Of a DNA stretch of 47,393 nt, positions 8,785-44,337 are shown piece after piece. This DNA is from a virus. Its lineage: Duplodnaviria > Caudoviricetes. The stretch is from positions 1 through 47,393 of IMG/VR virus record IMGVR_UViG_3300036798_000553. The stretch is one strand, 5' to 3'. The stretch's first letter is position 1; every line of letters starts with the position of its first letter. The notes under the pieces are model-generated. The model was given only the letters and a program-made list of their open reading frames with translations. It searched no databases and was not told the origin of the DNA. The translations under genes were made by a program, and so were the position numbers.

Positions 8785-11186
8785 GCTGTCCTCCGGTAGT
8801 TCGCGGTACCCGCGTAGGCGCGCTGCTCCACGCGTGGGGCCGCACGCTTCTGCTTGCGCTTCGGGTCCTTGTAGAGGAAGAAGTGGCACCCTGTGGACGC
8901 CGCGTCGACAGTGTCGTCGTTGGCGGTCTGGGGGTAGGCCAACTGCTCCTCCTCCAGGGGGACGAACTTGTCGGCGTGCACCACGCGCGGGTCGAGGTGC
9001 TTGTAGTAGCCGGCCAGCCTCGCGATGCGGGTGTCCTTGGGCTCGGACTGGGTTTTGACTTGGACGTGTACCGGCAGCTCCAGGAACGGGTCGGAAACGA
9101 AGTCGTGGCCCTGGTTGGTTTCGATGAGAATGGTGTCGATCTCGGGAAACCGCTCCAGAATGGATAGTACGTAGAGCTTCAGCTTGTGCGGCCGCATTTT
9201 CACGCGGTTGGCCCAGGCGACCTCGCACCGTGGGTGCGGCCCCGGTGGTAGCAGCTCGTCCGGCGCCGTGGGTGCGGATATGGATTCCGGCGGGGAAAGG
9301 GAAGCGCCCCAGCTCTGGTTGCCCGGAGTGCCGTTGTCGCGGCGCTGCTGGTGCCGCTGCCGGGCGGCCGTATCCCGATCCGTGAACGTGGGGTCGAAGA
9401 GGCTGCCCGCTGTGTCGCGGGCGCCGGGTGGAGCGCTGGTGGGTCGCGAGCGCCGGGTGCTGGTCGCGGCCAACAGGTGGGCGGGGATGAACTGGCGCAG
9501 GTCGGCGTAGAAGGCCTCGCGCTGGGCCTGTGAGGCACCGGGGGGCAGGCGGCGGCCCCGGCGGGCGGCCGCGCGGCGCAGGAACTCCTCGGCGGTACGG
9601 GGCTCGCCCTGGACGCTGCTCTCGGCCGGCACCCGCGAGTAGAGAAGGGCGCTGTCTCGCGGGTGCCGGCCGAGAGCAGCGGTGGACAGCCGTTGGGCTA
9701 CCTCCTCGAAGGCCGCCTCCGGGTTGGCCGGCTGGTAGCGGATCACGGCCAGGCCGGTGTAGTCAGAGGTGGCCGTTGCCGTTACCGCCGGGTCGATGGA
9801 CAGGATGGTGCGGGTGCAGCCGGCCAGGCGGGTGTAGGTGATGTCGCCGGATTCCCAGAAGTCCCCGTCGCCGACCGGATTGTTCTGCATATTTTTCATA
9901 AAGTCGTTGGTGCCCAGGCGGGGACGCAGTTCTTCTACCGGCCACTTTTCCGGCCACAGAGAGACGAGCTCTCCATCGGAGGGATTGATGGAGAGCGCGG
10001 GATAGTAGTGCCCCCGGAAGTTCTGCTCCCTGATCCAGTCGGCCACCAGGGCGCCGTAGCGATGTGGGTTGGTGGGAGTGGGGTGCTCGGGGGCGGTACC
10101 GGGGTTCAGCACGGACTGCACCATGTCGTGCATGATCGACCCGGCCATCGTGACGGTGCCGACCATCACCACCCGGGCGAACTCGTTCAGGTAGAGGATC
10201 TTGTCGCGCAGCCGGTTGACGCCCTTGAGCTTCATCGCGGTGGAGTATTTGTCCTCGGACGGCTCGATGTCGTCACATACGATCAGGCTCGGCCGCTCGT
10301 TGGAGCTGTTGACCAGACCGACAATCTTCCCGTCGATGGTATGCGCCTCGAAGGTGAAGCCGGACTCGGCCACGTAGGCGTTCTTATTGTCGTTGACCGC
10401 GTTTCCATTCGCCCTGCGCGCTGGCGTGCACAGTTCGGGGAAATCCTCGCGCAGGGCGGCGTTGTTGTCGATGTTGTCATGGAACTTCGCCAAGTGCTTC
10501 TGCACCTGGTCATCCGAATCCGAGAACGCCGCGATGAAGCGCTGGTGGCCGTGCGCCGCCGCCCACAGTGGGAGGATGGTAAATACCAGGGTACTTTTCC
10601 CAGCCCCGCGAGGGGCGATGTAGCAATCGCGGTCCTGGCGGGTGGTGCTGGCCGGGAACGCCCATTCTTCGCCGGCAATGAACAGGTCCACATGGAACTG
10701 GCAGAGCGTGATGCCGCCGTGTGAATCGGGAATACCGCTGCGGGTGAGCGCGTTCGGTGAGTCCAGCACCAGGTAGTGCGGGACGTAGAGCAGCGCCCAG
10801 AGGAACGGGTCGTAGCGGGTGGCCTCCCGGCGGCCGGCGGTCGAATCCAGCGCCCCGGAGGCGTACAGGCGCCTGAGCAGGCGGAACTTCTGCTTCAGGA
10901 AGGCTCTCGGGGTCGGATTGCCGCTGCCGGTGAGGCTCAGGCGGGGGGCGCCCCCGTCCTTGAGCAGCGGATTCGCGCGGGTGGTGGTGATGGGCGCAGC
11001 GGGTGCGTAGGGCGGCTGGGCCTGCCTGGGCGCTGCGGGGCGGTCTGGCTGCGGATGTGAGGAGGCGGAGCCGCTGGTGGTACGCCGGCGGCCGGTGTGG
11101 CCCGAGGAGGACACCTGGGCCGGGGGTGCGGGAGATTCCGCGCCGCGCCGCCGCGCCCGCCGGTCGGCCAGGCGAGTGGGTCGCAT
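8781..11186 (-). CDS. terL: terminase large subunit
   Basis: Walker A IAPRGAGKST, Walker B LIVCDD, MVGT, nuclease SIDPA...DYTG, IETNQG, NDDTVDA; start position uncertain. Confidence 0.92.
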   Translation of the reverse strand: MRPTRLADRRARRRGAESPAPPAQVSSSGHTGRRRTTSGSASSHPQPDRPAAPRQAQPPYAPAAPITTTRANPLLKDGGAPRLSLTGSGNPTPRAFLKQKFRLLRRLYASGALDSTAGRREATRYDPFLWALLYVPHYLVLDSPNALTRSGIPDSHGGITLCQFHVDLFIAGEEWAFPASTTRQDRDCYIAPRGAGKSTLVFTILPLWAAAHGHQRFIAAFSDSDDQVQKHLAKFHDNIDNNAALREDFPELCTPARRANGNAVNDNKNAYVAESGFTFEAHTIDGKIVGLVNSSNERPSLIVCDDIEPSEDKYSTAMKLKGVNRLRDKILYLNEFARVVMVGTVTMAGSIMHDMVQSVLNPGTAPEHPTPTNPHRYGALVADWIREQNFRGHYYPALSINPSDGELVSLWPEKWPVEELRPRLGTNDFMKNMQNNPVGDGDFWESGDITYTRLAGCTRTILSIDPAVTATATSDYTGLAVIRYQPANPEAAFEEVAQRLSTAALGRHPRDSALLYSRVPAESSVQGEPRTAEEFLRRAAARRGRRLPPGASQAQREAFYADLRQFIPAHLLAATSTRRSRPTSAPPGARDTAGSLFDPTFTDRDTAARQRHQQRRDNGTPGNQSWGASLSPPESISAPTAPDELLPPGPHPRCEVAWANRVKMRPHKLKLYVLSILERFPEIDTILIETNQGHDFVSDPFLELPVHVQVKTQSEPKDTRIARLAGYYKHLDPRVVHADKFVPLEEEQLAYPQTANDDTVDAASTGCHFFLYKDPKRKQKRAAPRVEQRAYAGTANYRRTA

Positions 11187-13713: not shown

Positions 13714-14532
13714 ATGTTCGCAACTGATCTCGACACCGACACGCTGGAGAAGGCCGCGCGCGAGGCGTTGACGCGCCCGTCGGACTTCGGTTACTTCGGA
13801 GATCTGCCCCTGTTCGAGTCCTGGGGATTCGTCGGCGGCCAGAATGCCGCCTCGGGCACGGTAGAGCGCAGCAACTACCGCGTGACGCTGGCAGAGCTAC
13901 AGGGCCGCGCCACGCACGACGACGGCGACCGGGCAGAGGACCCGTCCGAGTACGTGCAGGAAGTGCCGGTCTCCGATTGGCTGGTCGGCAGCGCCGATCA
14001 CCTGGCCGCCCGGGTGCTGATCGACCCGGACGGACCGGTGGAAGCCGAGAACCTGACCGCGACGTTCATCCGTGCCACCGAACTTGCCCTGTCCCTACAG
14101 GACTACCCCGTGTTGGACGAGTCCGACTGGTCCGAACTGGAGTCCGAGGAGCAGGAAGCGGCTTGGGATTCGTGGCTGAGCACGGTGGTTCTCGATGACA
14201 TCACCGAACACTTCGGAGTCGACGACATCGACGAACTCACCCTTGCCGCGTCCGACACGAAGTTCGACAGCTACAACAAGATCAGTGATCTGTACTCGGA
14301 CACGAACGCGGAAGCCGTCCGGGAGGCCTACTACCGCCACGATTCGACCGAATGGGTAGAAGAAGGCACCTCGTTCTACAACGCACGGCATGAAAACGTG
14401 GTGCGGGACCTGATCGAGCGGCTGTTCGTCCCGCGCGCGGAGCAGATTGACAGCGCCCACTCCACGGCGCTGGTCGAGGACACCGACCGCACCAACGGCC
14501 CAAATCAGCTCACGCTGGACGTGGCGGAGTGA
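13714..14532 (+). CDS. acidic hypothetical protein
   Basis: 272 aa, GAGG RBS, GC-rich third positions. Confidence 0.75.
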   Translation: MFATDLDTDTLEKAAREALTRPSDFGYFGDLPLFESWGFVGGQNAASGTVERSNYRVTLAELQGRATHDDGDRAEDPSEYVQEVPVSDWLVGSADHLAARVLIDPDGPVEAENLTATFIRATELALSLQDYPVLDESDWSELESEEQEAAWDSWLSTVVLDDITEHFGVDDIDELTLAASDTKFDSYNKISDLYSDTNAEAVREAYYRHDSTEWVEEGTSFYNARHENVVRDLIERLFVPRAEQIDSAHSTALVEDTDRTNGPNQLTLDVAE

Positions 14533-15794
14533 CAACCGCCGACACGCTCGATCGGCTGTTCGAGCGGTTCCGAGTCGACGCTCGTGTGTCCACGGTGGAC
14601 GTCGGACCGACCTATACGCGTTACGCCGTCTCCCTGGGAGACGGCGTAGCCGTCGAACGGGTGATCCGGCTCCAGCGCACGATTGCCGTTGCGACACAAC
14701 AGGAAGCCGCGCGGGTGACCGTCGGCGCCGAACTGGCGGTAGAAGTCCCAAATGTCACCCGCCGGATCGTGCCACTACACCCGTTGTCCGGGCCGCCGCT
14801 GACCGTGCCGGTCGGCGAGACTGTCCAGAACAGACCGATCAAAACCGACCTGGCAAGACTCCCCCACCTGTTGGTGGCAGGATCGACCGGATCGGGTAAG
14901 TCGAGTTTTCTCAACGCCGCGCTGTGCACGCTGCTAGCCCAACCGCCGGACGCGGTCCGGCTGGTCCTGATCGACCCCAAACGGGTGGAGTTCACGCCCT
15001 ACGCCGCAGCACCGCACCTGTGGTGTCCGGTCCTGACCGATACCGGCGAGTCCGTCACCGCGCTCGAACAGTTGGGTGCGGTGATGGAGGACCGGTACGC
15101 CGCACTCGCCACGGCCGGCGCGCGTGAGGTGACCACCGAGTTCCCGCGGATCGTGGTAGTGGTCGATGAGTTGGCAGACCTGATGTTCGCCGACCGCAAG
15201 CGGGTGGAGGCAGCCGTCGTACGGATCGCCCAGAAGGCCCGTGCGGTAGGCATTCACCTCGTACTGGCCACTCAGCGCCCGTCGGTGGACGTGGTCACCG
15301 GTCTGATCAAAGCCAACGTGCCGGCCCGGGTGTCGTTCGTGCTGCCCTCCCAGATCGACTCCCGGGTGGTGCTGGACCGTACCGGTGCGGAGCATCTCCT
15401 GGGGCACGGTGACGGTCTGTTCTCCCCCGTGGCCGCGCACGCCCCCGTCCGGTTCCAAGGCGCGCTGGTGACGGACACCGAGGTCCAACAGGCTGTCCGC
15501 CGCGCTGCCTACCGCTGGCCCGCCCCCGCGGCCCACACGCCCCGCCGCACACTCGCCGACGTGCCAGAGCCCGTCCTGTCCGCTACGACCACCACCGGTG
15601 CCCTCACGGCCGTCTGCGAGGCAGTCTTGGCTTGGGCCAGCATTACCGGCCGCACGATCACCCGACGCCAGGTGCACGAGATGGCGTCCACCCTGCTGGC
15701 CCGCCGCTCGATCCCGGCCGTCCCGCCGGACGCCTGGCTGCTCCCCCTGGTAGCCCAGCAGGCCGCTTCCGTCGGTCTGGCAACCGCCTTCTGA
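14529..15794 (+). CDS. FtsK/SpoIIIE-family ATPase lacking the N-terminal membrane region
   Basis: PHLLVAGSTGSGKS, LIDPKRVE, VVVVDELADLM, KARAVGIHLVLATQRPS, GAEHLLGHGDGL. Confidence 0.93.
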   Translation: MTTADTLDRLFERFRVDARVSTVDVGPTYTRYAVSLGDGVAVERVIRLQRTIAVATQQEAARVTVGAELAVEVPNVTRRIVPLHPLSGPPLTVPVGETVQNRPIKTDLARLPHLLVAGSTGSGKSSFLNAALCTLLAQPPDAVRLVLIDPKRVEFTPYAAAPHLWCPVLTDTGESVTALEQLGAVMEDRYAALATAGAREVTTEFPRIVVVVDELADLMFADRKRVEAAVVRIAQKARAVGIHLVLATQRPSVDVVTGLIKANVPARVSFVLPSQIDSRVVLDRTGAEHLLGHGDGLFSPVAAHAPVRFQGALVTDTEVQQAVRRAAYRWPAPAAHTPRRTLADVPEPVLSATTTTGALTAVCEAVLAWASITGRTITRRQVHEMASTLLARRSIPAVPPDAWLLPLVAQQAASVGLATAF

Positions 15795-16550: not shown

Positions 16551-16672
16551 GCACACCAACCTCTCTGAAAGTATATCTACGGCAGTATAACACAATTACC
16601 AGAGCTTCGACAGTGGCTGCTTGCTCTAAAAAGCACATTGAGTTTATCTCCGCGAGCATTTATCCAAAGTAG

Positions 16673-16826
16673 TCTGGCCCTCCTTTTCAAGGAGGGTGGT
16701 TTCTCCTTGGCCTGACCCTCCTTTTAGGACAGACGCTTGCTGAGCACCTATGTCCAGGGTGGTCTGGCCCTCCTTTTAGGACAGACGGTACAAAGCGGAC
16801 AGGCAAGATCATCTGGCCCTCCTTTT
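16673..16826. repeat. four direct repeats of CTG(G/A)CCCTCCTTTT
   Basis: copies near 16674, 16712, 16764 and 16813; two extend with AGGACAGACG. Confidence 0.8.
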
Positions 16827-17743: not shown

Positions 17744-17826
17744 GTAACCGCTGTAACCGCAGTCCTGGCGATTGAAGAAAATTCTCTCTCATTAGGCTTG
17801 AGTGGGCATGCGGTTACAGCGGTTAC
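17744..17826. repeat. 18-bp perfect inverted repeat, candidate replication origin
   Basis: GTAACCGCTGTAACCGCA (17744-17761) / TGCGGTTACAGCGGTTAC (17809-17826). Confidence 0.7.
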
Positions 17827-20951: not shown

Positions 20952-21319
20952 GTCCGACCCAGCCGACCCAAGACCACCAGCACACAGGCCGGATGCTTGC
21001 CTTCCTTGAGCAGGAACCGGACCAGTTCGTCCTGGGGCAGCGCCGCACCACGCAGTTGGCGCAGGATGCGTCCTTTCTCCACCAGCAGATCGACATCCGC
21101 GCCGAAGGCCGAGACCCAGGCGGCGGCGCTGTGGAAAACCGGGATTTCCGCCCGACCCTCCATCACCTCGATCGCCCGGCTAGCGTGCTTCCGCCACAAC
21201 TCGTCGACCTTCTCCGAGGCCGCCTGTCCCCACGGCGAGCGCAGGTTCTCGTCGATCGAGAGTAAGTAATCCTCGTAGAGATACCGGGCCAGCCGCTCGA
21301 CACGCTCGGCCTCATTCAC
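20948..21319 (-). CDS. hypothetical protein
   Basis: GTG start with GGAGG RBS. Confidence 0.65.
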   Translation of the reverse strand: MNEAERVERLARYLYEDYLLSIDENLRSPWGQAASEKVDELWRKHASRAIEVMEGRAEIPVFHSAAAWVSAFGADVDLLVEKGRILRQLRGAALPQDELVRFLLKEGKHPACVLVVLGRLGRT

Positions 21320-21462
21320 GGCCTCCTCCTCTCCACGACCACCACGCCGACGGCACCCCAAATCATCCAGACGACACCAAACCCGAACGGATTGAGCAGT
21401 GGCTCGCCGGTCAGTGCATACAACACCACCGCAAGCAGGAGGATTACTGTCGGTCCTGGCAT
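21316..21462 (-). CDS. small two-TM membrane protein
   Basis: MPGPTVILLLAVVLYAL...FGVVWMIWGAVGVVVV. Confidence 0.55.
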   Translation of the reverse strand: MPGPTVILLLAVVLYALTGEPLLNPFGFGVVWMIWGAVGVVVVERRRP

Positions 21463-21509
21463 CCAAGTCTCGGACCACCATTTGTAGCCACGGTCACGAT
21501 GGGAAGACT

Positions 21510-21767
21510 TCACGGCAGCACCACCACATCCGCCGCATCCAAGTCCTCGGCGGTTTCCGTTGTCCAGTCCTCGGGGTCGTCGGGCCGGGCGAACGTGACC
21601 TCGCCATCGACCACCGCAGTAATGTTGTAGACGTTCCCGCTCAGCGGGAACCGTAGCCGCTTGCCGGCCGCATACTTGAGTCGACAGGAGCGGCTGTCGC
21701 ACGGGCGGTGCGGAAACTCCGGCGCGCCAGCGGCGTCACACGAACAGCGCGGCTCAAGATCAGGCAT
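21510..21767 (-). CDS. hypothetical protein
   Basis: AAGGAG RBS, MPDLEPRCSC. Confidence 0.55.
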   Translation of the reverse strand: MPDLEPRCSCDAAGAPEFPHRPCDSRSCRLKYAAGKRLRFPLSGNVYNITAVVDGEVTFARPDDPEDWTTETAEDLDAADVVVLP

Positions 21768-22062
21768 CGAATTTACTCCTTGCCGCCAGTTCGACAACAG
21801 CGTCCAAAGTATACGGTCCGAGTGCCGCACGCAGCAGGGCGAAGGTCTCGGGCGGCACGGCGTTCAGCAGGACAGCCAGCGCGTCCACCGGTATGTTCAG
21901 CGACTTGCGCCGGCCAGTAAGAACGAGGCGCGAGCGGTTGTAATCGGCGCGGACCGCACAGCACGGCGGGCACGCCTTCTCGCGCAGCTCGGCGTGCACT
22001 GCGTAACCGCTCAGCGAACCACAGAGCCGCCCCGGCCCGGCGAGTGTTTCGGTCTGTGTCAC
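21760..22062 (-). CDS. small putative Zn-binding protein
   Basis: CGS..GY..H...EKACPPC motif common in actinophage proteins. Confidence 0.6.
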   Translation of the reverse strand: MTQTETLAGPGRLCGSLSGYAVHAELREKACPPCCAVRADYNRSRLVLTGRRKSLNIPVDALAVLLNAVPPETFALLRAALGPYTLDAVVELAARSKFDA

Positions 22063-22382
22063 CTAACACTCCTCAGCTCGAACGCACCGCCGCAGGGGTA
22101 GCCGTCGGGCTGGGTCATCCGACATTCAGTACCCACCTTCGTTGCCGCGCTGAGTGCGCATCGGTTGCAGCGTCCACAGCGGAGCTCTGCCTCTCCTGCC
22201 GATGCGGCACCAGCCTCGGAGAGGCGGTCCAGCTCGTTCTGCAAAGCCTCACACCGAGCCTCCAAAGGGCCGACAACGCGCATGACGGCATCGCCCACCT
22301 CCAGCGAGGAGCCGGTACGCACATGTCGACTGATGGCGCGGCGTACCGCCAGCTCCACCGCACTCACTGTTTCCAGTCCCAT
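22059..22382 (-). CDS. hypothetical protein
   Basis: coupled ORF with a Cys-rich C-terminus. Confidence 0.55.
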   Translation of the reverse strand: MGLETVSAVELAVRRAISRHVRTGSSLEVGDAVMRVVGPLEARCEALQNELDRLSEAGAASAGEAELRCGRCNRCALSAATKVGTECRMTQPDGYPCGGAFELRSVR

Positions 22383-22642
22383 TACTTAATCCCTCCTCCT
22401 CGGCTGATATTCTCGGCGCTGGTGCGCAGTCTGTCGTGCAGCTCGCGCACCTCGCGCATCAACTCGTCGAACTGAGCGGCCAGGCGGATGGCGTGCGAGC
22501 CGAAGTGGTCCGTGGCCGCTTGGCCCGAATCGGCCAGTAGCGGCAGGGTATCGCGCAGCGCATCCGCCGCAGCCTGGGCGTAGCCGTTGTCCAGCCGCTC
22601 GGCGGCGGCCAGCAGGCACGCGACCGTATGCTCGCTGCTCAC
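22382..22642 (-). CDS. ~86-aa helical-hairpin paralog 7 (WXG100-like)
   Basis: MSSEHT...SGQAATDHFG...SAENISRGG. Confidence 0.75.
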   Translation of the reverse strand: MSSEHTVACLLAAAERLDNGYAQAAADALRDTLPLLADSGQAATDHFGSHAIRLAAQFDELMREVRELHDRLRTSAENISRGGGIK

Positions 22643-22965
22643 GAGTTCGACACCTTGAAGTAGTCCCGGATACCGCCCTTGTAGAAGTCGTCAAAATCGA
22701 ACACCTCGGGCAGCGTCAGCGTTCCCACGACCTTGTTCTGGCTGGCCATGTAGCCGCCTTCGGCGTGCTCGACCAGGGTGTCCACCGTAGCTTCGTCGGT
22801 GGGATTGTCGAGGTCCAAGGTGTATTCCGGGTCCTCGTCATACGTGTCATGGAGCGCGACGAGCAGGCGCGCGAGTGCTGTGGCGTTACCGTCGCACTGA
22901 AGCCAGAAGTGCCAAGTCTCGCCTTCCCAGTCGTTGTTCTCGGTGAATTTCACGAATGTGCTCAC
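22639..22965 (-). CDS. acidic hypothetical protein
   Basis: AAGGAG RBS; KFTENNDWEGETWHFW ... DDFYKGG. Confidence 0.7.
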   Translation of the reverse strand: MSTFVKFTENNDWEGETWHFWLQCDGNATALARLLVALHDTYDEDPEYTLDLDNPTDEATVDTLVEHAEGGYMASQNKVVGTLTLPEVFDFDDFYKGGIRDYFKVSNS

Positions 22966-23099
22966 TCGGTTCTCCTTCGAATTTCGTAGTCCTCCAGCAG
23001 GGCTTGGGCGAACTCCTCCAGCGTCTCCGCACCGGCGGCGGCCGCATCACCGAGCTTGCGGACGAGTTCGGCCTCGGTGACGTCGGAGTCGGGATTCAT
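22962..23099 (-). CDS. small hypothetical protein
   Basis: overlap-coupled ORF, MNPDSDV. Confidence 0.5.
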   Translation of the reverse strand: MNPDSDVTEAELVRKLGDAAAAGAETLEEFAQALLEDYEIRRRTE

Positions 23100-23491
23100 G
23101 GCGCTCTCAGCAATCCGACAACGGCCAGGCCATCCACCATGCAATCGGCCCAGTCGGCGTTCATCTCCTCGGGCGGCCGAGCCTTCAGCATGGCGGCGGT
23201 CGCCTTCAACGACTCGATGGCGGCGGTCCGCGCTCCCGTACCGAGCGGCACGAGCAGTCCGGTGCTGTCCAGGTCCCCTGCCATACGGTCGGCCCAGGTA
23301 TGGTCGGTGATCCTCAACAACGCGTCCATGTGCAGGGCCACCGCGCTCGCCTGTAGCGATGCGACAACGGCGTCGTGAACGGCACTGCCGAACAATTCAC
23401 CTCCGCTCGTCAGTTCGCGGATCGCACGCATGTTGTCCAGCGCGAGCCGGTAGTGGGTACGAATCGCTTCCTTGGTTTCCTCGTCGGTCAT
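23096..23491 (-). CDS. hypothetical protein
   Basis: overlap-coupled ORF. Confidence 0.65.
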   Translation of the reverse strand: MTDEETKEAIRTHYRLALDNMRAIRELTSGGELFGSAVHDAVVASLQASAVALHMDALLRITDHTWADRMAGDLDSTGLLVPLGTGARTAAIESLKATAAMLKARPPEEMNADWADCMVDGLAVVGLLRAP

Positions 23492-23748
23492 TTGATCGAC
23501 CCTCCGTGGGCAATGCGTGCGGCGGACTGGTGGATTTCTCGGTACAGCCGCGCGAACCGGACCTGAATGTGATCGAGTTCCTCGGCCAGTAGCAGGGTCT
23601 GCTCGCCGAAGTGGTTGACGGCGGCCTCGCCCGCGGCGGCGAGATTGGCGTGGGCCTCCCGCAGCAAGCAGGCGGCCGCCTCGATGTAGCCGACATTGAT
23701 CACCTCGGCGGCGTGACTCAGCTTGGCGGCGGTGCTTTCGCTACTCAT
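23488..23748 (-). CDS. ~86-aa helical-hairpin paralog 6 (WXG100-like)
   Basis: MSSEST...AGEAAVNHFG...SAARIAHGG. Confidence 0.75.
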   Translation of the reverse strand: MSSESTAAKLSHAAEVINVGYIEAAACLLREAHANLAAAGEAAVNHFGEQTLLLAEELDHIQVRFARLYREIHQSAARIAHGGSIK

Positions 23749-23755
23749 CTTCGCC

Positions 23756-24139
23756 TCACCGCTGTTCCTCCTCGGACGCGTCGTCGTCGGCTAGGTGCTG
23801 GGTATTAGCCAAAGCATCCTCGGCACTCTGGCGCGTCAGGAACCGCCACGGCGCCATGCCTGGCGCAACAAGGTCCCAGCATGGCTGATGGGAGTGCTCG
23901 TCGAACGCCTCGACGAGCTCCCACTGTGGGGCGGAGCCCTGCTTCTCCTCGACATTGTCGACGGCCAGATGCTGGTCGGTCATCGCAGGAAAAGTCGTAG
24001 CTGACCGAATCGCAGTCGATTTCCAGCCGAACGTTCGCGTGGTGCAGTTAGCCGGTACGCCCCACATGGCCATATCCAGCTCGGCGGCCTCGTGGTCGGG
24101 GTATTCGTATTCCAGGAATCGAATCACACGGACGGGCAT
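23756..24139 (-). CDS. hypothetical protein
   Basis: GGAGGA RBS; VRVIRFLEYEY. Confidence 0.65.
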   Translation of the reverse strand: MPVRVIRFLEYEYPDHEAAELDMAMWGVPANCTTRTFGWKSTAIRSATTFPAMTDQHLAVDNVEEKQGSAPQWELVEAFDEHSHQPCWDLVAPGMAPWRFLTRQSAEDALANTQHLADDDASEEEQR

Positions 24140-24177
24140 CTAATCCTCCAGAAAGCCGGTGCACAGTGAAGCGGATC

Positions 24178-25329
24178 TCATTTCTGCCGCAGCACGACGA
24201 CTTCGTCGGCCGCGCGAGTGATGGCGGTGTAGAGCCACTTCGTAGCGTCCCGGCCGAAGGCGCTGGACTCGTCGAAGACCACCACCCGCGGCCATTCCGA
24301 TCCCTGGGATTTATGCGCCGTAATAGCGTAGGCGAAGCCGAACAGGGGCAGATGGCTGAAGCCCTCGATCTGCATCAGGTCGGCCTCGGGCACGTCCGCG
24401 GCGGCGAGCTGGGCGACGGTGTACTGCTCACCGTTGATCAGGCCGAGCTTCGGCTCGTTGCGCAGGCAGACCAGGCGGTCCGCGTCGTCCAGGTCGTCCG
24501 GCGCCCGGCCCAGCACCGCGCGCAAGGCGGTGTTCAGGCGCAGACGGGTGGCGTTGCGGCCGCAGATCACCTGGTCGTACTCCAGCAGCTTCTCAGCCAT
24601 CTCGACGGTGGGGGCGAAGGAGTCCACGTAGTTCAGGCCGCTGCCCTCACGCCAGGAGTCCACGCCGCGAGGGCCGCGTTCGCGCACCCGGGTGGCGAAG
24701 TAGTGCACCGATGAGTCCAACGCGAAGCGGTGCGGCTGGGTGAGCAGTACCGTCGGCTTGTAGTCCTCGCCAGCCAGCGGGCTGACCGCCTTGACTGGGG
24801 GGAGCTGGGCCGGATCGCCCAGCGCCAGCACCGGGATGCCGAAGGACATCAGATCGGCCAGCAGTTGTTCGGAGACCATGCTCGCCTCGTCGAGGATAAT
24901 CGCCTCGACCTTCTCGGCCAGTTCCTCCTGGAGCACGAACGTCGGCGAGCTGAGGATGCCCAGCAGCGTCTGGATCCGCTCGCGCAGCTCCTCCTGCTTC
25001 GCCTTGCTCCTTTCCTTGGCCAGCAGCTTGGAAAGCCGATCCAGCTCCTTGCGCGAGTCGCCGACCGCCCGGTAGATCAGCGAATGCACCGTTGTCGCCG
25101 GCACGCCCTTGTTCCGCAGCACCAAGGCGGCTTTGCCGGTGGGTGCGCAGAACGCGACCCGGGCGGCGACCCGGGCGGCGATGTGCCGGGCCGTTGTTGT
25201 TTTGCCCGTTCCGGCATGCCCGAAAAGCGTGCTCAGCGGAGCACCCTTGCGCAGCCGGGTGGCCAGCAGCTCCACCGCCCGGTCCTGTTCCTGGGTGAGT
25301 TCTACCGCCGGTCCGGCCGCCGGCCCCAC
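24178..25329 (-). CDS. Dda/RecD-like SF1B helicase
   Basis: GHAGTGKT, APTGKAA, TVHSLIY, ILDEASM, GDPAQLPPV, YAITAHKSQGSEW, YTAITRA; GTG start inferred from GGAGGAG. Confidence 0.9.
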   Translation of the reverse strand: MGPAAGPAVELTQEQDRAVELLATRLRKGAPLSTLFGHAGTGKTTTARHIAARVAARVAFCAPTGKAALVLRNKGVPATTVHSLIYRAVGDSRKELDRLSKLLAKERSKAKQEELRERIQTLLGILSSPTFVLQEELAEKVEAIILDEASMVSEQLLADLMSFGIPVLALGDPAQLPPVKAVSPLAGEDYKPTVLLTQPHRFALDSSVHYFATRVRERGPRGVDSWREGSGLNYVDSFAPTVEMAEKLLEYDQVICGRNATRLRLNTALRAVLGRAPDDLDDADRLVCLRNEPKLGLINGEQYTVAQLAAADVPEADLMQIEGFSHLPLFGFAYAITAHKSQGSEWPRVVVFDESSAFGRDATKWLYTAITRAADEVVVLRQK

Positions 25330-25616
25330 AGCAGCCGCAGCTCCTCCACGGAAAGCCCCAGGCGCCGGGCCGCCTCCGGTTCCGGCACCAGTGTTGTCGA
25401 ACTCTGGTTGTCCTGATCCAACACCAGGATCCGGTGCGACGGGACTGTCTCTGACTGCTCCGGAACGTGCCATTGTTTGCCACTCTCCTTCTGTCCGATG
25501 AGCTGAAAGCGCACTACGGTAGCCTCGGACGCCATCACCACGCCCATCACCCACTGCGGCTCAGCGGGCGGCAGTTCGTAGAAGAACTGAAGCACCTCGC
25601 CCCAAGTGAAAATCAC
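25302..25616 (-). CDS. hypothetical protein with a C-terminal HTH-like segment
   Basis: GTG start, AAGGAG RBS; EAARRLGLSVEEL. Confidence 0.55.
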   Translation of the reverse strand: MIFTWGEVLQFFYELPPAEPQWVMGVVMASEATVVRFQLIGQKESGKQWHVPEQSETVPSHRILVLDQDNQSSTTLVPEPEAARRLGLSVEELRLLWGRRPDRR

Positions 25617-25945
25617 GCTTCGCTCCTTTCCACGGCGCATGCCAACAGTTTCAGTTCGATCGAGCGTGCGACAGCGGCCATGCCGGGCCGGCTGTCCTCG
25701 TGCTCGGCTAGCGTGCGGATCACCTCGGCGACGAGCTTTTCGACGGACGCACCGCGCCCAACCGCTCCTGCGGCGCGGTGCGTTAACCGCCAGGCAAGGT
25801 GCTCCGGCGTGCTGGCCTCTGACACTTCGACGGGAGAAGAATTCAGGTCGTAGGTGTCCCACCGCCGTTGCAGGCGGGCGGTGCTGACGCGCAGGGCGCG
25901 CAGGTCCCCCACGAGCTTGCGAGCAAGAGCGGCATTATCCGTCAT
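25613..25945 (-). CDS. hypothetical protein
   Basis: coupled ORF. Confidence 0.6.
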   Translation of the reverse strand: MTDNAALARKLVGDLRALRVSTARLQRRWDTYDLNSSPVEVSEASTPEHLAWRLTHRAAGAVGRGASVEKLVAEVIRTLAEHEDSRPGMAAVARSIELKLLACAVERSEA

Positions 25946-26205
25946 GGACTGATACTCCCGCCCTGCCGGACCCGGGCCGAGGCTTGTTCCAGGTTCTGGC
26001 GCAACTGGCTCATTCCGACCACCGACTCGTGCAGCGCCTGCTCAATAAGGTTGAATATCAGTCCGAACTCCTCGATCGCGGGGAGACCGGCTACGGCCAT
26101 GAAACCGGCCGCCGCTTTGACGTTGTCGCGGATCTCCGCGAGCAGCTCGACCTGGAGGAAGTTGCCGGCGATCAGCAGACTGTCAGCCGTGTCCTCGGCG
26201 CTCAT
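25942..26205 (-). CDS. helical-hairpin paralog 5 (WXG100-like)
   Basis: MSAEDT...AGLPAIEEFG...ASARVRQGG. Confidence 0.78.
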   Translation of the reverse strand: MSAEDTADSLLIAGNFLQVELLAEIRDNVKAAAGFMAVAGLPAIEEFGLIFNLIEQALHESVVGMSQLRQNLEQASARVRQGGSISP

Positions 26206-26463
26206 TTAGATCGGACCACCCGTCGCCACCGAATCGGCCGAAGCCTGAAGGTCGACAGCCAGCCCCGCCAACATGGTGGAGCCCTTGTCGAGATACTCGA
26301 TCAGCCGATTGATACGTGCGCCGTACTTCTCCGTCGCGGGTTCTCCCGCGAGCCCGACGAAGGAAATCACCGTGGACATCCGCTCGATGACCACACCCAT
26401 CTGGCTGAATGGCACGTTCCATGCGGCCTGTTCGAGTACACCCGCTGTATTCTCGGAACTCAT
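26206..26463 (-). CDS. helical-hairpin paralog 4 (WXG100-like)
   Basis: MSSENT...AGEPATEKYG...SADSVATGG. Confidence 0.78.
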   Translation of the reverse strand: MSSENTAGVLEQAAWNVPFSQMGVVIERMSTVISFVGLAGEPATEKYGARINRLIEYLDKGSTMLAGLAVDLQASADSVATGGPI

Positions 26464-26721
26464 CTAGAGCCAACCTCCCGCAGCCACACGCTCGGCCGCC
26501 GTCTGGATGTCATTCTGGATGTCCACCAGTTCATGGGCCGTTGCCTCCAACAGTGCGGCGGCATCGGCGACCCGGCTTCCGAATTTGTCCACCGCCGCCG
26601 TGCCGGCCAACGCAAGGGCTTGCAGTGCGGCCTTGACCTCCGTGGAGGCGTTGTTAACCGCGCCGTAAGGAAGGTTGCTGGCGGCCTGCGCCAGTGCTCG
26701 GGCGGTGTCCTCGGAGCTCAT
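26464..26721 (-). CDS. helical-hairpin paralog 3 (WXG100-like)
   Basis: MSSEDT...AGTAAVDKFG...AAERVAAGG. Confidence 0.78.
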   Translation of the reverse strand: MSSEDTARALAQAASNLPYGAVNNASTEVKAALQALALAGTAAVDKFGSRVADAAALLEATAHELVDIQNDIQTAAERVAAGGWL

Positions 26722-26978
26722 GCGATCGCCCCTCCCTTGCGGACTCGGCCGGCAGCGGTCGTGAGTTCGTTCAACAGCGTGGTGGCGGAGAGCACCAAAG
26801 CGGAGAGATCCTCGTTCAGCGACTGGACATGGGCGCCGAAGTGCTCTCTGGCTGGAGCCCCCGCCAGGTCGATGAAGGATGTCACCGTGGACATCTGCTC
26901 GGCCGCCGAAGCCAACTGTTCGGTCGGCACACTGTCCGATGCCGACGCCAACGCGTCGGCTGTGTTCTCGGAACTCAT
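26718..26978 (-). CDS. helical-hairpin paralog 2 (WXG100-like)
   Basis: MSSENT...AGAPAREHFG...AAGRVRKGG. Confidence 0.78.
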   Translation of the reverse strand: MSSENTADALASASDSVPTEQLASAAEQMSTVTSFIDLAGAPAREHFGAHVQSLNEDLSALVLSATTLLNELTTAAGRVRKGGAIA

Positions 26979-27238
26979 CAGGTGACCGAGCCTCCCTGTT
27001 GGACCCGGGCGGACGCGGCCTGGAGATCGCTCTTCAGGCCGTCCATCGCGGATGCCACGGCGCTCAGCTGTTCGGAGATCGCCGCCGCCCGGCTGCCGTA
27101 GCTCTCCACCGCCGGTGCGCCCGCCGCCGTCAGCGAGCCCAGAACGGTGTCCATGCGCTCGGCGCAGGCAACGGCTTCGGCGGCGGGAATGCTGTCGGCA
27201 GCCTGCTTCAGAGCACTGGACGTATCCTCGAAACTCAC
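26978..27238 (-). CDS. helical-hairpin paralog 1 (WXG100-like)
   Basis: GTG start, MSFEDT...AGAPAVESYG...ASARVQQGG. Confidence 0.78.
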   Translation of the reverse strand: MSFEDTSSALKQAADSIPAAEAVACAERMDTVLGSLTAAGAPAVESYGSRAAAISEQLSAVASAMDGLKSDLQAASARVQQGGSVT

Positions 27239-27267
27239 AGAGTCCTGCTTTCTTGGTAGATAGCGAT

Positions 27268-27534
27268 TTATCGACGCCGGCCGTCGGATTGGCCGGTGCG
27301 TTGGTGGTGTTCTTGGGCGAGCTGGTAGACCAGTGACACGCCGCGCAGGCGGGCCTCGGCGCGCAGGCGGTCCAGGTCGGTTCGGGCGAACAGCGGGCGG
27401 CCGGCCACGAGGTGCCGCGTGACGATACCGTCGGCCAGCCAGCGGTAGAGGGTGCTGCGGGAAACCAGGAGGTATCGGGCAGCGTCGGCCGCCGACAACC
27501 ACTCTGAGTAGATTTTCGCCGCTGGCCGATCCAT
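27268..27534 (-). CDS. excisionase/MerR-type HTH DNA-binding protein
   Basis: WLSAADAARYLLVSRSTLYRWLADG...FARTDLD; GGAGG RBS; first gene of the leftward operon. Confidence 0.85.
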   Translation of the reverse strand: MDRPAAKIYSEWLSAADAARYLLVSRSTLYRWLADGIVTRHLVAGRPLFARTDLDRLRAEARLRGVSLVYQLAQEHHQRTGQSDGRRR

Positions 27535-27706
27535 CAACCCTCCTCTCTCGCCGTGGTGTGTCAATGTACACACATGCTCCGGCCGCGTCCAGCCGCACGA
27601 AACCGCACGCGAGTGCGCGTCCGTGTGAGAAAAGTTCGCCGACGCTGTTACCATTCACGGTGGACGCATGCTGCATGACCTGCACCGATGCGAGAGGGAG
27701 GGTGCG

Positions 27707-27970
27707 GTGGCCGCCGCTGTTTCGATCTTGTCAGCGCTTCTGGGAATAGCTGTAACGGTGGGCATCTGGGCGGCCGGGCGGGTGGATACTGTCAGGCGGG
27801 AGAAAGACCAGGAGATCGCCGCATGGAAGACGGCGTTCGAGGGTATGAAAGTAGCGCACAGTGAGGTGGTCGATTTGCAACGGAATTCCCAGCAGGCCAC
27901 GGCGATCACCAACACTGTCATGCTCGCGCTGAAAAGCCAGCTCCCGCCCAGTCCAGCAGGAGGATCATGA
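27707..27970 (+). CDS. membrane protein (N-terminal TM plus coiled coil)
   Basis: GGAGG RBS, VSILSALLGIAVTVGIW. Confidence 0.6.
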   Translation: MAAAVSILSALLGIAVTVGIWAAGRVDTVRREKDQEIAAWKTAFEGMKVAHSEVVDLQRNSQQATAITNTVMLALKSQLPPSPAGGS

Positions 27971-28278
27971 CTATGAAGATCTCCTGGCGCCCCCGCCGTG
28001 ACCGGCCGGCACCTGGAACTTCCCCGCCCCCCGCCGTCCCCGCCGAGACGCCGTCACTCAGTGACGAGGCGCGCGCTGCCCTGCGGGCCGCCGAGCAGGC
28101 CCAGGCCGAAGCCTCGCGCACGAGCGCCGAGATGGCCCCCATCCTGCGCTCGATCCGCCGGCACCTCGCGCATAACGACATCAAGGACACGATCAAACGT
28201 CTGGATATCTATGCGGCTCTGTGGCAGACCGAGACGGATCTGTTGCGGCGCAACCAAGAGGGAGGCGAGAGGACATGA
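27967..28278 (+). CDS. hypothetical protein
   Basis: coupled ORF, GGAGG RBS. Confidence 0.6.
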   Translation: MTMKISWRPRRDRPAPGTSPPPAVPAETPSLSDEARAALRAAEQAQAEASRTSAEMAPILRSIRRHLAHNDIKDTIKRLDIYAALWQTETDLLRRNQEGGERT

Positions 28279-37768: not shown

Positions 37769-37840
37769 GCCGCACTAGCTCAACGGACAGAGCTTCGGTC
37801 TACGGAACCGAGCGTCGAGGTTCGATTCCTCGGTGTGGCA
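37769..37840 (+). tRNA. tRNA-Arg (ACG)
   Basis: GCCGCAC/GTGTGGC acceptor, TCGGT-CTACGGA-ACCGA anticodon arm, CGAGG-TTCGATT-CCTCG T arm; no encoded CCA. Confidence 0.9.
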
Positions 37841-37858
37841 CTGAAAGGGGGCTGTTTC

Positions 37859-38497: not shown

Positions 38498-38570
38498 CTC
38501 TCGCTAGCTCAGTAGGCAGAGCAGCCGACTTTTAATCGGCGGGTCGCTGGTTCGAGCCCAGCGCGGGAGA
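38498..38570 (+). tRNA. tRNA-Lys (TTT)
   Basis: CTCTCGC/GCGGGAG acceptor, GCCGA-CTTTTAA-TCGGC anticodon arm, GCTGG-TTCGAGC-CCAGC T arm; no encoded CCA. Confidence 0.92.
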
Positions 38571-38593
38571 CGTGTCCGAACGAGAGGAAGGGC

Positions 38594-39880: not shown

Positions 39881-41488
39881 ATGAGTAAGTTCAATAAGCC
39901 CGGCTCGCGTCCGTCGAGTGAGTCGCCGGTGTACGCCGAGTCGACGCCATCTGGGCGAACCGCGCTGGGAGCGCCGGGTTACGCGCGAGACGCGCAGTCC
40001 GAGCTGTTTTTGCTGGGGGTAACGAATTTAGTTACCGAAGACGCGTTCCACGAGTCCGCCGCGCAGCGCGATAGCCGGTTCGCCGAGCTGGTGCGGATCG
40101 TGGCCCCGGTCGAGCCGGACTGGACACGCCGTTTCATCCGCTGGCTTCGGCACGATGTGGGTATGCGCTCGGCGCCGTTGGTGCTGGCCAACCACGCGGT
40201 CAACTCGGCGCTTCCGGAGGGTCTTTCCGGTCGGCATTTCGTCAGCGCCGCATTGGACCGGGCCGAGGAGCCGGGCGAGGCGCTGGCGTACTGGCAGCAG
40301 GCTTGGGGGCGGAAGATGGCAATCTCCTGGCGGCGCGGCGTCGCCGATGCGGCCACTCGGCTCTACACCCAGCGGTCGCTGCTGAAGTGGGATTCGCCGG
40401 ACAAGCCGATGCGCTTCGGCAAGGTCATCGAGCTGACGCACCCGACGCCGCGGGACGCTGAGCAGGCCGCGCTGTTCCGCTACGCGATGGATCGGCGGTT
40501 CAAGGGCAACGACGCGGATATCCCGCGCGAGCTGGAGATTGTGCACTACCACCAGAAGCTCATGGGCTGGCCGGTGGCGAAGCGTCGGGCGCTGTTCGAC
40601 AAGCCGGGCGCAGCCGACAAGCTCTGGCGGGCCGGCATGACGTGGGAGAAGGTCTCGGGCTGGCTCCAGGGTCCGCTGGACGCCACCGTCTGGGAAGCGT
40701 TGATTCCGGTGATGGGCTACGCAGCCCTGCTGCGGAACCTGCGCAACTTCGACCAGGCCGGCGTGCGGGACGAGGTGGCCGAGCTGGTGCAGGCGCGGCT
40801 GGCCGATCCCGTGGAGGTGCTGCGGGCGCGGCAGTTTCCGATGGCTTACCTCTCGGCCTACCGGGCGACGTCGGACTCGCTGCGCTGGGGCCACGCCCTG
40901 GAAAAGGCGCTGGGCCTGTCCCTGGCCAACATCCCCGAGTTGACCGGCCGCACGTTGATCCTGGTCGACACCAGCACCAGCATGCGCGATGGTTTCAGCA
41001 AGGACGGCACGGTTAAGCGCTGGGATGCGGCGGTGGTCTTCGCTCTCGCCCTGGCCTCGCGGTGCGCACAAGCCGACGTGGTGTCCTTCTCCTCCAACGC
41101 TCGGTACATGGGAGACCCGCCTGGTGCGAACACCAAGCATTTCGTCTCGCGCCCCGGCGAATCTCTGCTACGCGGCATCGAACGCTGGGACAAGGGAGGC
41201 TACTTCCTGGAAGGCGGAACGGCCACCGGCGAGGCGGTGCGCAAGCACTTCCATGCCGAAGACCACAAGCGCGTGGTCATTCTCACCGACGGCCAGTACC
41301 GGGGCATCAACCCGCACGAGCAGCTTCCGCGGAGCACGCCGCTCTACACCTGGAACATAGCCGGCTACCAGTACGGCCACGCGCCGGCCGGCGGCCACAA
41401 CCGGCACGAGCTCGGCGGCCTGACCGACCGGGGCTTCGAGATGATCCCGCTTCTGGAACGCGGCCAGGACACCGACTGGCCGTTCTGA
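39881..41488 (+). CDS. rsr: Ro60-like TROVE plus vWA RNA-binding protein
   Basis: MSKFN, SELFLL, GMRS, TWE, MGYAALLRNLRN, RQFP, LILVDTSTSM, GGT, ILTD. Confidence 0.93.
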   Translation: MSKFNKPGSRPSSESPVYAESTPSGRTALGAPGYARDAQSELFLLGVTNLVTEDAFHESAAQRDSRFAELVRIVAPVEPDWTRRFIRWLRHDVGMRSAPLVLANHAVNSALPEGLSGRHFVSAALDRAEEPGEALAYWQQAWGRKMAISWRRGVADAATRLYTQRSLLKWDSPDKPMRFGKVIELTHPTPRDAEQAALFRYAMDRRFKGNDADIPRELEIVHYHQKLMGWPVAKRRALFDKPGAADKLWRAGMTWEKVSGWLQGPLDATVWEALIPVMGYAALLRNLRNFDQAGVRDEVAELVQARLADPVEVLRARQFPMAYLSAYRATSDSLRWGHALEKALGLSLANIPELTGRTLILVDTSTSMRDGFSKDGTVKRWDAAVVFALALASRCAQADVVSFSSNARYMGDPPGANTKHFVSRPGESLLRGIERWDKGGYFLEGGTATGEAVRKHFHAEDHKRVVILTDGQYRGINPHEQLPRSTPLYTWNIAGYQYGHAPAGGHNRHELGGLTDRGFEMIPLLERGQDTDWPF

Positions 41489-43421: not shown

Positions 43422-43537
43422 AACTCATCATCTCCCTCGTGGTCTTCGCGGTAATTCTTCTCGGTCTCGCTCTCCTGTTTCCGCACCAGGGCAACGAGGT
43501 CATCAACTGGATCGTCAACAGGGCGAAGGGACATTGA
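43418..43537 (+). CDS. small TM peptide
   Basis: LIISLVVFAVILLGLALLF; GTGA coupling. Confidence 0.5.
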   Translation: MKLIISLVVFAVILLGLALLFPHQGNEVINWIVNRAKGH

Positions 43538-44337
43538 TGGACACGAAGCGAGCGATTGCCGACCAGCACACGATCCTGCGGACGCAGGTCGGCTCGGGAC
43601 TGCACGGGACGGCGATCTCCGGGCAGGACGACCGCGACGAGATGGGGATCTGCGTCGAGCCGCCGGAATACGTGCTCGGGCTGGAGCGGTTCGACCAGTA
43701 CGAGTTCCGCTCCCAGCCGACGGGCGTGCGGTCCGGTCCGGGCGACCTTGACTTGGTCGTCTATGGATTGAAAAAATGGATGCGCTTGGCCGTCGCCGGC
43801 AATCCAACCATCATCCTGCCGCTGTTCGCGCCGGAGTCGGAGGTGCTGGTCAACACACCCTACGGCGAGCGCCTGCGCCAGCAGGTGCCGACGCTGCTCT
43901 CGCGCCAGTGCGCGGACCGCTACCGCGGCTACCTGGAGAGCCAGCGCGCCCGGCTGATGGGCTTGAAGTCCACTGGCACCAATCGGCCTGAACTGATCGA
44001 GCTGTACGGTTTTGACACGAAGTACGCCATGCATATGGTCCGTCTGGGCATCCAGGGTATCGAGCTGCTGACCACCGGCCGCATCACGCTGCCCGTCCCC
44101 GCGCCTCACCTGACGCTGTTGCGTGACATTCGCGTCGGCAAGCTGACTATGCAGGAAACCCTGGTGATCGCCGATGAATTCGACGCCGAGCTGCTGCGCC
44201 TGCGCACTGAATCGCCGCTGCCCGAGGAAGTGGACCGAGCCAAGACCAACGAACTGTTGATCGAGATCTACGAAGCAGCGTGGCACACCAAGCCGGACCC
44301 CATTGTATTTCCGCTCAGTGCGGACTGGCCCTACTGA
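43537..44337 (+). CDS. Pol-beta-superfamily nucleotidyltransferase (RlaP/YcgL-like)
   Basis: VGSGLHG, DDRDEMG, GNPT, GFDTKYAMHMVRL. Confidence 0.85.
   Translation: MDTKRAIADQHTILRTQVGSGLHGTAISGQDDRDEMGICVEPPEYVLGLERFDQYEFRSQPTGVRSGPGDLDLVVYGLKKWMRLAVAGNPTIILPLFAPESEVLVNTPYGERLRQQVPTLLSRQCADRYRGYLESQRARLMGLKSTGTNRPELIELYGFDTKYAMHMVRLGIQGIELLTTGRITLPVPAPHLTLLRDIRVGKLTMQETLVIADEFDAELLRLRTESPLPEEVDRAKTNELLIEIYEAAWHTKPDPIVFPLSADWPY

Follow-up and report, generated by a model that had tools for sequence, protein, structure and literature searches.

An array of seven small hairpin genes in a phage record resembles WXG100 proteins without export signals and may encode decoys of type VII secretion

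Results

The IMG/VR virus record IMGVR_UViG_3300036798_000553, analyzed here over its full 47,393 bp (the window, G000), is a linear record of 65% GC and 70% completeness that carries seven paralogous genes for proteins of 85-87 amino acids (aa), all on the minus strand. Five lie in tandem: paralogue 1 (26978..27238, 86 aa, with a GTG start and placed inside a 235-aa frame of the list of open reading frames, ORFs), paralogue 2 (26718..26978, 86 aa), paralogue 3 (26464..26721, 85 aa), paralogue 4 (26206..26463, 85 aa) and paralogue 5 (25942..26205, 87 aa). The two others are dispersed, paralogue 6 at 23488..23748 (86 aa) and paralogue 7 at 22382..22642 (86 aa, GTG start), and are sisters in the family tree (support 95/91). 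A first-pass annotation of the DNA had called these genes, and its coordinates and lengths held; searched with a profile, the entire record yields exactly seven copies. Pairwise identity is 22-44%, and the pairwise score exceeds the maximum of 300 shuffles in 21 of 21 pairs (z 7.9-28.4). The three motifs that the annotation described, at the start, at a central turn and near the end of the chain, are present in all seven proteins when these are aligned. The GC content at third codon positions is 0.73-0.83.

The tandem five have the layout of translationally coupled genes, with intergenic gaps of -4 to 0 nucleotides (nt), so that neighbors overlap or abut. In all seven genes a Shine-Dalgarno-like stretch rich in purines (with GGAGG in five of the seven), 7-12 nt before the next start codon, overlaps the codons of the C-terminal Gly-Gly. 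Because of this overlap the motif, [IV]xxGG in the annotation, may owe part of its conservation to the RNA level and is partly confounded with translational coupling; it occurs in 7/7 paralogues as claimed, and its first Gly is kept in 37/48 family members. The array was also said to follow directly on a helix-turn-helix (HTH) gene, and it does: an HTH_17/excisionase-like gene (27268..27537, minus strand; Pfam PF12728, E 8.5e-8; phrog_66) heads the leftward gene run and ends 29 nt before paralogue 1. A Dda-like helicase gene (24178..25416, minus strand; phrog_325, E 1.4e-77) separates the dispersed pair from the tandem five. A search of window positions 21000-28000 brought up no sigma-70-like promoter.

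A search of 1.84 billion representatives with a profile of the seven proteins found 44 matches: the seven themselves, 29 short proteins (74-109 aa) and eight long ones (502-2761 aa). The long hits were dropped as presumed coiled-coil repeats, P0012, the one that was checked, being a tape measure protein. Ten further members came from a sub-profile search. The working alignment (A4) holds 48 rows, seven from the window and 41 others, after exclusion of P0024 and P0070 for length, replacement of three fragments by full-length cluster members, and addition of four ORFs from G003. The latter, an unrelated actinophage and the second phage with an array, is represented by a complete (100%) record of 59 kb. 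Five of its members lie within 2 kb, and a weaker, elongated copy of 112 aa (L039 16692-17030, i.e. G003:C1:10146-10484) lies 5 kb from the array and carries the same N-terminal motif and turn; identity among the G003 copies is 12-27%. At E <= 1e-5 this phage and the window have in common a tail-fibre segment and one small gene, and nothing else. Six other members have a longest contig of the same length, 31,430 bp, which is probably one contig, and they probably form a third array. The relative G001 (92% complete) keeps the window order of lysis-side genes, HTH_17 gene, Dda helicase and primases, and no family member was found in it. Variation in copy number among phages, which the annotation had proposed to look for, is thus seen (7 in G000, 5+1 in G003, 0 in G001), and by gene content the array is an accessory module, because its syntenic relative has none.

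The family tree places the phage copies on long branches with poor resolution (13 of its 45 inner branches are starred), and with that resolution no one-to-one orthology between window and G003 subunits emerged. A clade of 17 conserved rows (support 100/99) includes Pseudonocardiaceae proteins; its named sources, which cover four of the 17 rows, are Amycolatopsis sp. GM8 (WP_236793310.1), Saccharomonospora (WP_007023742.1 and WP_019806800.1), Actinokineospora iranica and an Actinomycetota metagenome-assembled genome, the rows having been grouped by similarity beforehand. The named bacterial homologues also include WP_444830601.1. This clade may represent the origin of the family or its target. 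All 48 members are acidic, with net charges from -2 to -10. Scans with a degenerate DNA pattern recovered one true member among 33 viral loci, which was the G003 locus already found, and none among 120 metagenome loci (of about 150 estimated in all). Scans with alignment A3, P0017, P0010 and P0033 found no relative, and neither cultured phages nor plasmids gave a credible tblastn match for paralogue 1, P0010, P0026 or P0064. The loci L036, L037/L038 and L040 were rejected as chance coiled-coil matches, L037/L038 on the basis of partial coverage and absence among the family matches.

Structure models of paralogues 1 and 2 are helical hairpins, as the annotation had supposed, with predicted local distance difference test (pLDDT) values of 94.8 and 97.5. 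The helices (H3-15/H19-39 and H41-80) turn at Gly40, and this turn Gly is invariant in 48/48 members. The heptad faces extend beyond a single stripe, as would be expected for a bundle. For the pair of paralogues 1 and 2 the predicted complex reached an interface score (ipSAE) of 0.88 against 0.00 for the best of three controls, where the score mark applied is reached by 116/157 solved pairs and 2/215 mismatched pairs; runs agreed on 97% or more of the contacts, and the pLDDT of the partners was 93 or higher. The modelled contacts (e.g. 13-35, 25-25 and 54-65) describe a full-length, antiparallel four-helix bundle, which as a prediction is in line with the bundle that the annotation had made a test of its proposal, and which is the architecture described for WXG100 proteins (PMC3935865, PMC10653861). 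Conserved residues cluster at the turn and at both chain ends, and the antiparallel model brings these together. The two input alignments have most rows in common and WXG100 bundles are already among the solved structures, so that the prediction points to WXG100 likeness and a propensity to dimerize, and does not tell a heterodimer from a homodimer.

Among known families, WXG100 leads the Foldseek and member-count comparisons, each time below the threshold. For both models, Foldseek ranks 1-10 were WXG100/Esx chains (template modelling score 0.59-0.73, E 0.19-1.2). WXG100 was also the family matched by most members, in Pfam (5/48) and in NCBIfam (TIGR03930, 6/48, best E 0.0046), all below the cut-offs; the window proteins are absent from these weakly matching rows, PF06013 matched 0/7 of them at E <= 0.1, and the best homologue scored 16 bits against a cut-off of 27.3. 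With the family profile, Staphylococcus aureus EsxA comes up at E 0.008, the match covering the turn. When aligned by hhalign with 23 Bacillota WXG100 domains the family scored 25.2 (probability 46), as compared to 10 for FliJ and 13 for CsoR, and column-block shuffles reached the ungapped score of 23.0 in 0/60, 0/60 and 1/60 cases. The WXG100 hidden Markov model (HMM) scored forward above reversed for 38 of the 48 members, which are related and not independent; at E <= 0.5 it matched family members only, in 4/318 window ORFs and 3/404 G003 ORFs. The end of helix 2 (L..AA.RV) aligns with L..IA.KF of WXG100, and in an Atlas structure search WXG100-containing clusters made up two of the first three rows, under the naming bar of the tool. 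No match at cut-off was found for the family in Pfam, PHROG, NCBIfam or PADLOC, nor any at E <= 0.001 in a viral fold library, in line with the annotation, to which no described phage system of this kind was known.

Both halves of the described export signal are missing. A Trp two residues before the turn Gly is found in 0/48 members, against W-x-G in 23/23 control WXG100 proteins; the register of the turn is ambiguous by one residue, and neither register has a Trp. The label "Trp-less" given in the annotation is therefore right for the turn and wrong for the proteins as a whole, since paralogues 3 and 4 each have one Trp elsewhere. The pattern [YF]xxx[DE] occurs in the last 20 aa of 1/48 members against 16/23 controls. 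The place aligned to it reads V-x-x-G-G, where the chain stops, 42-49 aa past the turn Gly and with no export arm. For WXG100 proteins a C-terminal pattern HxxxD/ExxhxxxH that includes YxxxD/E has been described (PMC3935865), export by a type VII secretion system (T7SS) is described as requiring the bipartite signal WxG plus YxxxD/E (PMC9811218), and variant bipartite signals exist, as in AesA-AesB (PMC13622651). Judged on its residues, the family fails WXG100 membership on two defining motifs, and, with the second of these missing as well, the idea that the paralogues are themselves T7SS substrates is not supported.

Around the two phage arrays, to which this test applied, no WXG/LXG toxin, cargo or immunity gene was found. 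The neighbors in the window are the HTH gene, the Dda helicase and small ORFs without known family; in G003 they are phrog_1362, a tRNA-like gene (called at L039 9625-9714, directly upstream of the array), ORFs without known family and glycosyltransferases, of which this phage has three genes. The WXG100 HMM matched no non-family ORF in either record. The window also codes for an FtsK/SpoIIIE ATPase (14529-15794, plus strand within a minus-strand region), which had been put forward as a partner of the paralogues. It was rejected as an EccC-like partner, being a single ATPase with an FtsK_alpha domain and of the DNA-translocase type. This domain marks DNA translocases rather than EccC.

The window record codes for terminase, portal, major capsid protein, Dda helicase and primase. 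Its host is probably an actinomycete, because the nearest cultured relatives of the major capsid protein belong to Streptomyces and Microbacterium phages (at most 46% identity). The record was found in one soil metagenome run. Contigs of that run span the array region with zero differences listed, and since the run is probably the source sample they are not independent of the record.

Some further features were observed. Four purine-rich elements at 16663-16826 (core AAAAGGAGGGCCAG on the minus strand, 38-52 nt apart) lie downstream of an HTH/terminase-small-like gene and are possible operator or ribosome-binding-site-like repeats. At 17744-17826, just downstream of the primase-helicase gene, a perfect 18-nt inverted repeat built of a short tandem unit surrounds a 47-nt A/T-richer spacer and is origin-like. 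A TROVE-VWA (Ro60-like) gene (39881-41488) and a nucleotidyltransferase gene (43534-44337) form a possible RNA-repair module, with tRNA calls nearby for Arg (37769-37841) and Lys (38498-38571). In G001 an insert of about 1.2 kb, with an opposite-strand ORF (9114-9908), splits the Dda helicase gene (L008 8663-11074) near its N-terminus and resembles an intein or homing-endonuclease insertion.

Discussion

We propose, tentatively and with a probability of about 0.35, that the paralogues are intracellular decoy partners that tie up WXG100-type hairpins of the host and thereby damp type VII secretion. According to this hypothesis the genes would be co-expressed early, from the HTH-led gene run, and their products would fold as helical hairpins predicted to pair antiparallel into WXG100-type four-helix bundles. 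Because both export signals are absent, the proteins would likely stay inside the cell. There, a paralogue could pair with a host Esx protein, with a targeting factor or with the host's own family member, and the mixed bundle, lacking half of the bipartite signal, would be export-incompetent. Several diverged copies could be kept to cover several host partners or several hosts; in sequence terms the seven genes look like an accessory, fast-diverging phage family, and their multiplicity and divergence within an accessory slot are compatible with a set of decoys. A bolder version, in which arrays of actinophages constitute a dominant-negative anti-T7SS system of signal-less WXG100 mimics and every paralogue suits a host partner of its own, is doubtful on present evidence.

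These interpretations should be taken with caution, since a number of results weigh against them. No family HMM cut-off is reached by any match, and no Foldseek E-value is below 0.19. In the family-profile search that finds EsxA, coiled-coil fragments rank above it. Reversal of the family profile lowers its score against WXG100 only from 25.2 to 23.0, and in the reciprocal test the family HMM scored forward above reversed in 12/23 WXG100 proteins, a null result. In VIA-align unrelated hairpins lead (Z 9.7-8.1 over 50 rows), and the only WXG100 entry among these rows is EsxA at rank 37 (Z 8.3). The complex of paralogues 1 and 2 may have passed as a homodimer, or from a memory of solved WXG100 bundles. 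No RNA data set was among those listed as containing the window record. The first-pass description of the proteins as mimics with the WXG100 fold is partly supported, as to hairpin, predicted bundle and Foldseek leads, and weakly as to homology, which stays below every threshold. With every value sub-threshold, we still consider descent of the family from WXG100 likely.

Somewhat unlikely, in our judgment, is a role as generic four-helix-bundle proteins of counter-defence or host takeover, which would bind some other helical target (a defence protein, an SMC-like coiled coil or a regulator) and be diversified by an arms race, with secretion uninvolved and the likeness to WXG100 due to ancestry or convergence. 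The absence of both T7SS signal halves, the generic fold in VIA-align, the close reversed-profile control, the acidity of all members and the position among small ORFs without known family, in the variable slot that follows the first regulator, would all agree with such a role. It would leave aside that WXG100 comes first in both Foldseek searches and in the member counts of two libraries, that length and turn position match WXG100, and that no other target family recurs in the weak matches of the members. The paralogues could instead be non-canonical T7SS targeting factors or substrates, i.e. dimers exported by the host machine or escorting cargo by means of a variant signal made of the conserved bundle ends. 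We regard this as improbable: variant signals such as that of AesA-AesB are on record (PMC13622651) and the conserved turn and chain ends do meet in the antiparallel model, but neither array adjoins a WXG/LXG toxin or cargo gene, and the early chain end leaves no export arm. One homologue, P0064 of A. iranica, bears an automatic UniRef name of the EspC/type VII kind, which a Pfam scan of this protein did not reproduce.

Two further explanations concern the multiplicity of the copies. Translational coupling of five window genes, and array sizes that are similar in G003 and probably on the 31-kb contig, could suggest a fixed hetero-oligomer or filament of several distinct subunits; the dispersal of two copies, the lack of any copy in the syntenic relative and the missing one-to-one orthology in the (poorly resolved) tree make it very unlikely. 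Equally little credence is given to redundant duplicates of one homodimeric protein that drift with no selected division of labor. Deep divergence and a module that is dispensable in a relative would be expected of drift, but no copy is broken among the seven of the window or the five of the G003 array, protein length, the turn Gly and the heptad faces persist at 12-44% identity, and arrays recur in unrelated phages.

If the paralogues are decoys, they would be natural, small and genetically encodable inhibitors of T7SS, and would offer a direct test of the role of each half of the bipartite signal. Even if they are not, the amplification of an unnamed family by unrelated phages, to 5-7 diverged members, is what one would expect of a conflict gene. 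Esx systems of actinomycetes act in conflict, according to PMC13622651, and a review (PMC9333272) describes T7SS-dependent killing in Enterococcus that infection by phages can induce. The openly licensed literature yielded no report of phages inhibiting or mimicking T7SS, and no description of hairpin arrays that lack both toxin and signal.

How do the arrays compare with known systems? DUF6244 (PF19757) is an Atlas feature neighbor of paralogue 1 and serves as a lead only: the likeness consists in the feature-neighbor score (0.86), the length (87 aa) and Actinomycetota as source, and the difference in the HMM (cut-off 31.6 bits), which gave no match in the window at E <= 10. This family is not among the 25 listed of 67 Pfam families matched by the 48 members, and no literature on it was found. 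Phage-encoded WXG100 proteins as such are already known from the PEST cassettes of Mycobacterium prophages, which are described as one or two WXG100 genes with a polymorphic toxin and an immunity gene, some of them lysogenically expressed (PMC10654092). The likeness lies in phage-encoded WXG100-type hairpins, with heterodimers predicted for the PESTs (PMC10654092); here, in contrast, there are 5-7 diverged hairpins, the signals are missing, and a toxin or immunity gene was not found.

Lap1/Lap2 and EsxC/EsxD, as described in PMC10653861, are WXG100-like targeting factors that can be without WxG, and they resemble the paralogues in being small helical partners with several per locus. They lie upstream of a cognate LXG-type toxin and one partner has [FY]xxx[DE] (PMC10653861), neither of which holds for the paralogue arrays. 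With WXG100 itself (PF06013, TIGR03930; S. aureus EsxA, B. anthracis EsxB, T. curvata EsxAB) the family has in common a hairpin of about 90 aa that turns at a central Gly, with A...[FWY] after it, and the aligned end of helix 2; an antiparallel four-helix-bundle dimer is predicted for paralogues 1 and 2. It differs by a break of helix 1 at residues 16-18 and by scores below the cut-offs, and, whereas WXG100 loci are mono- or bicistronic, the paralogues form arrays of 5-7 in phage gene runs.

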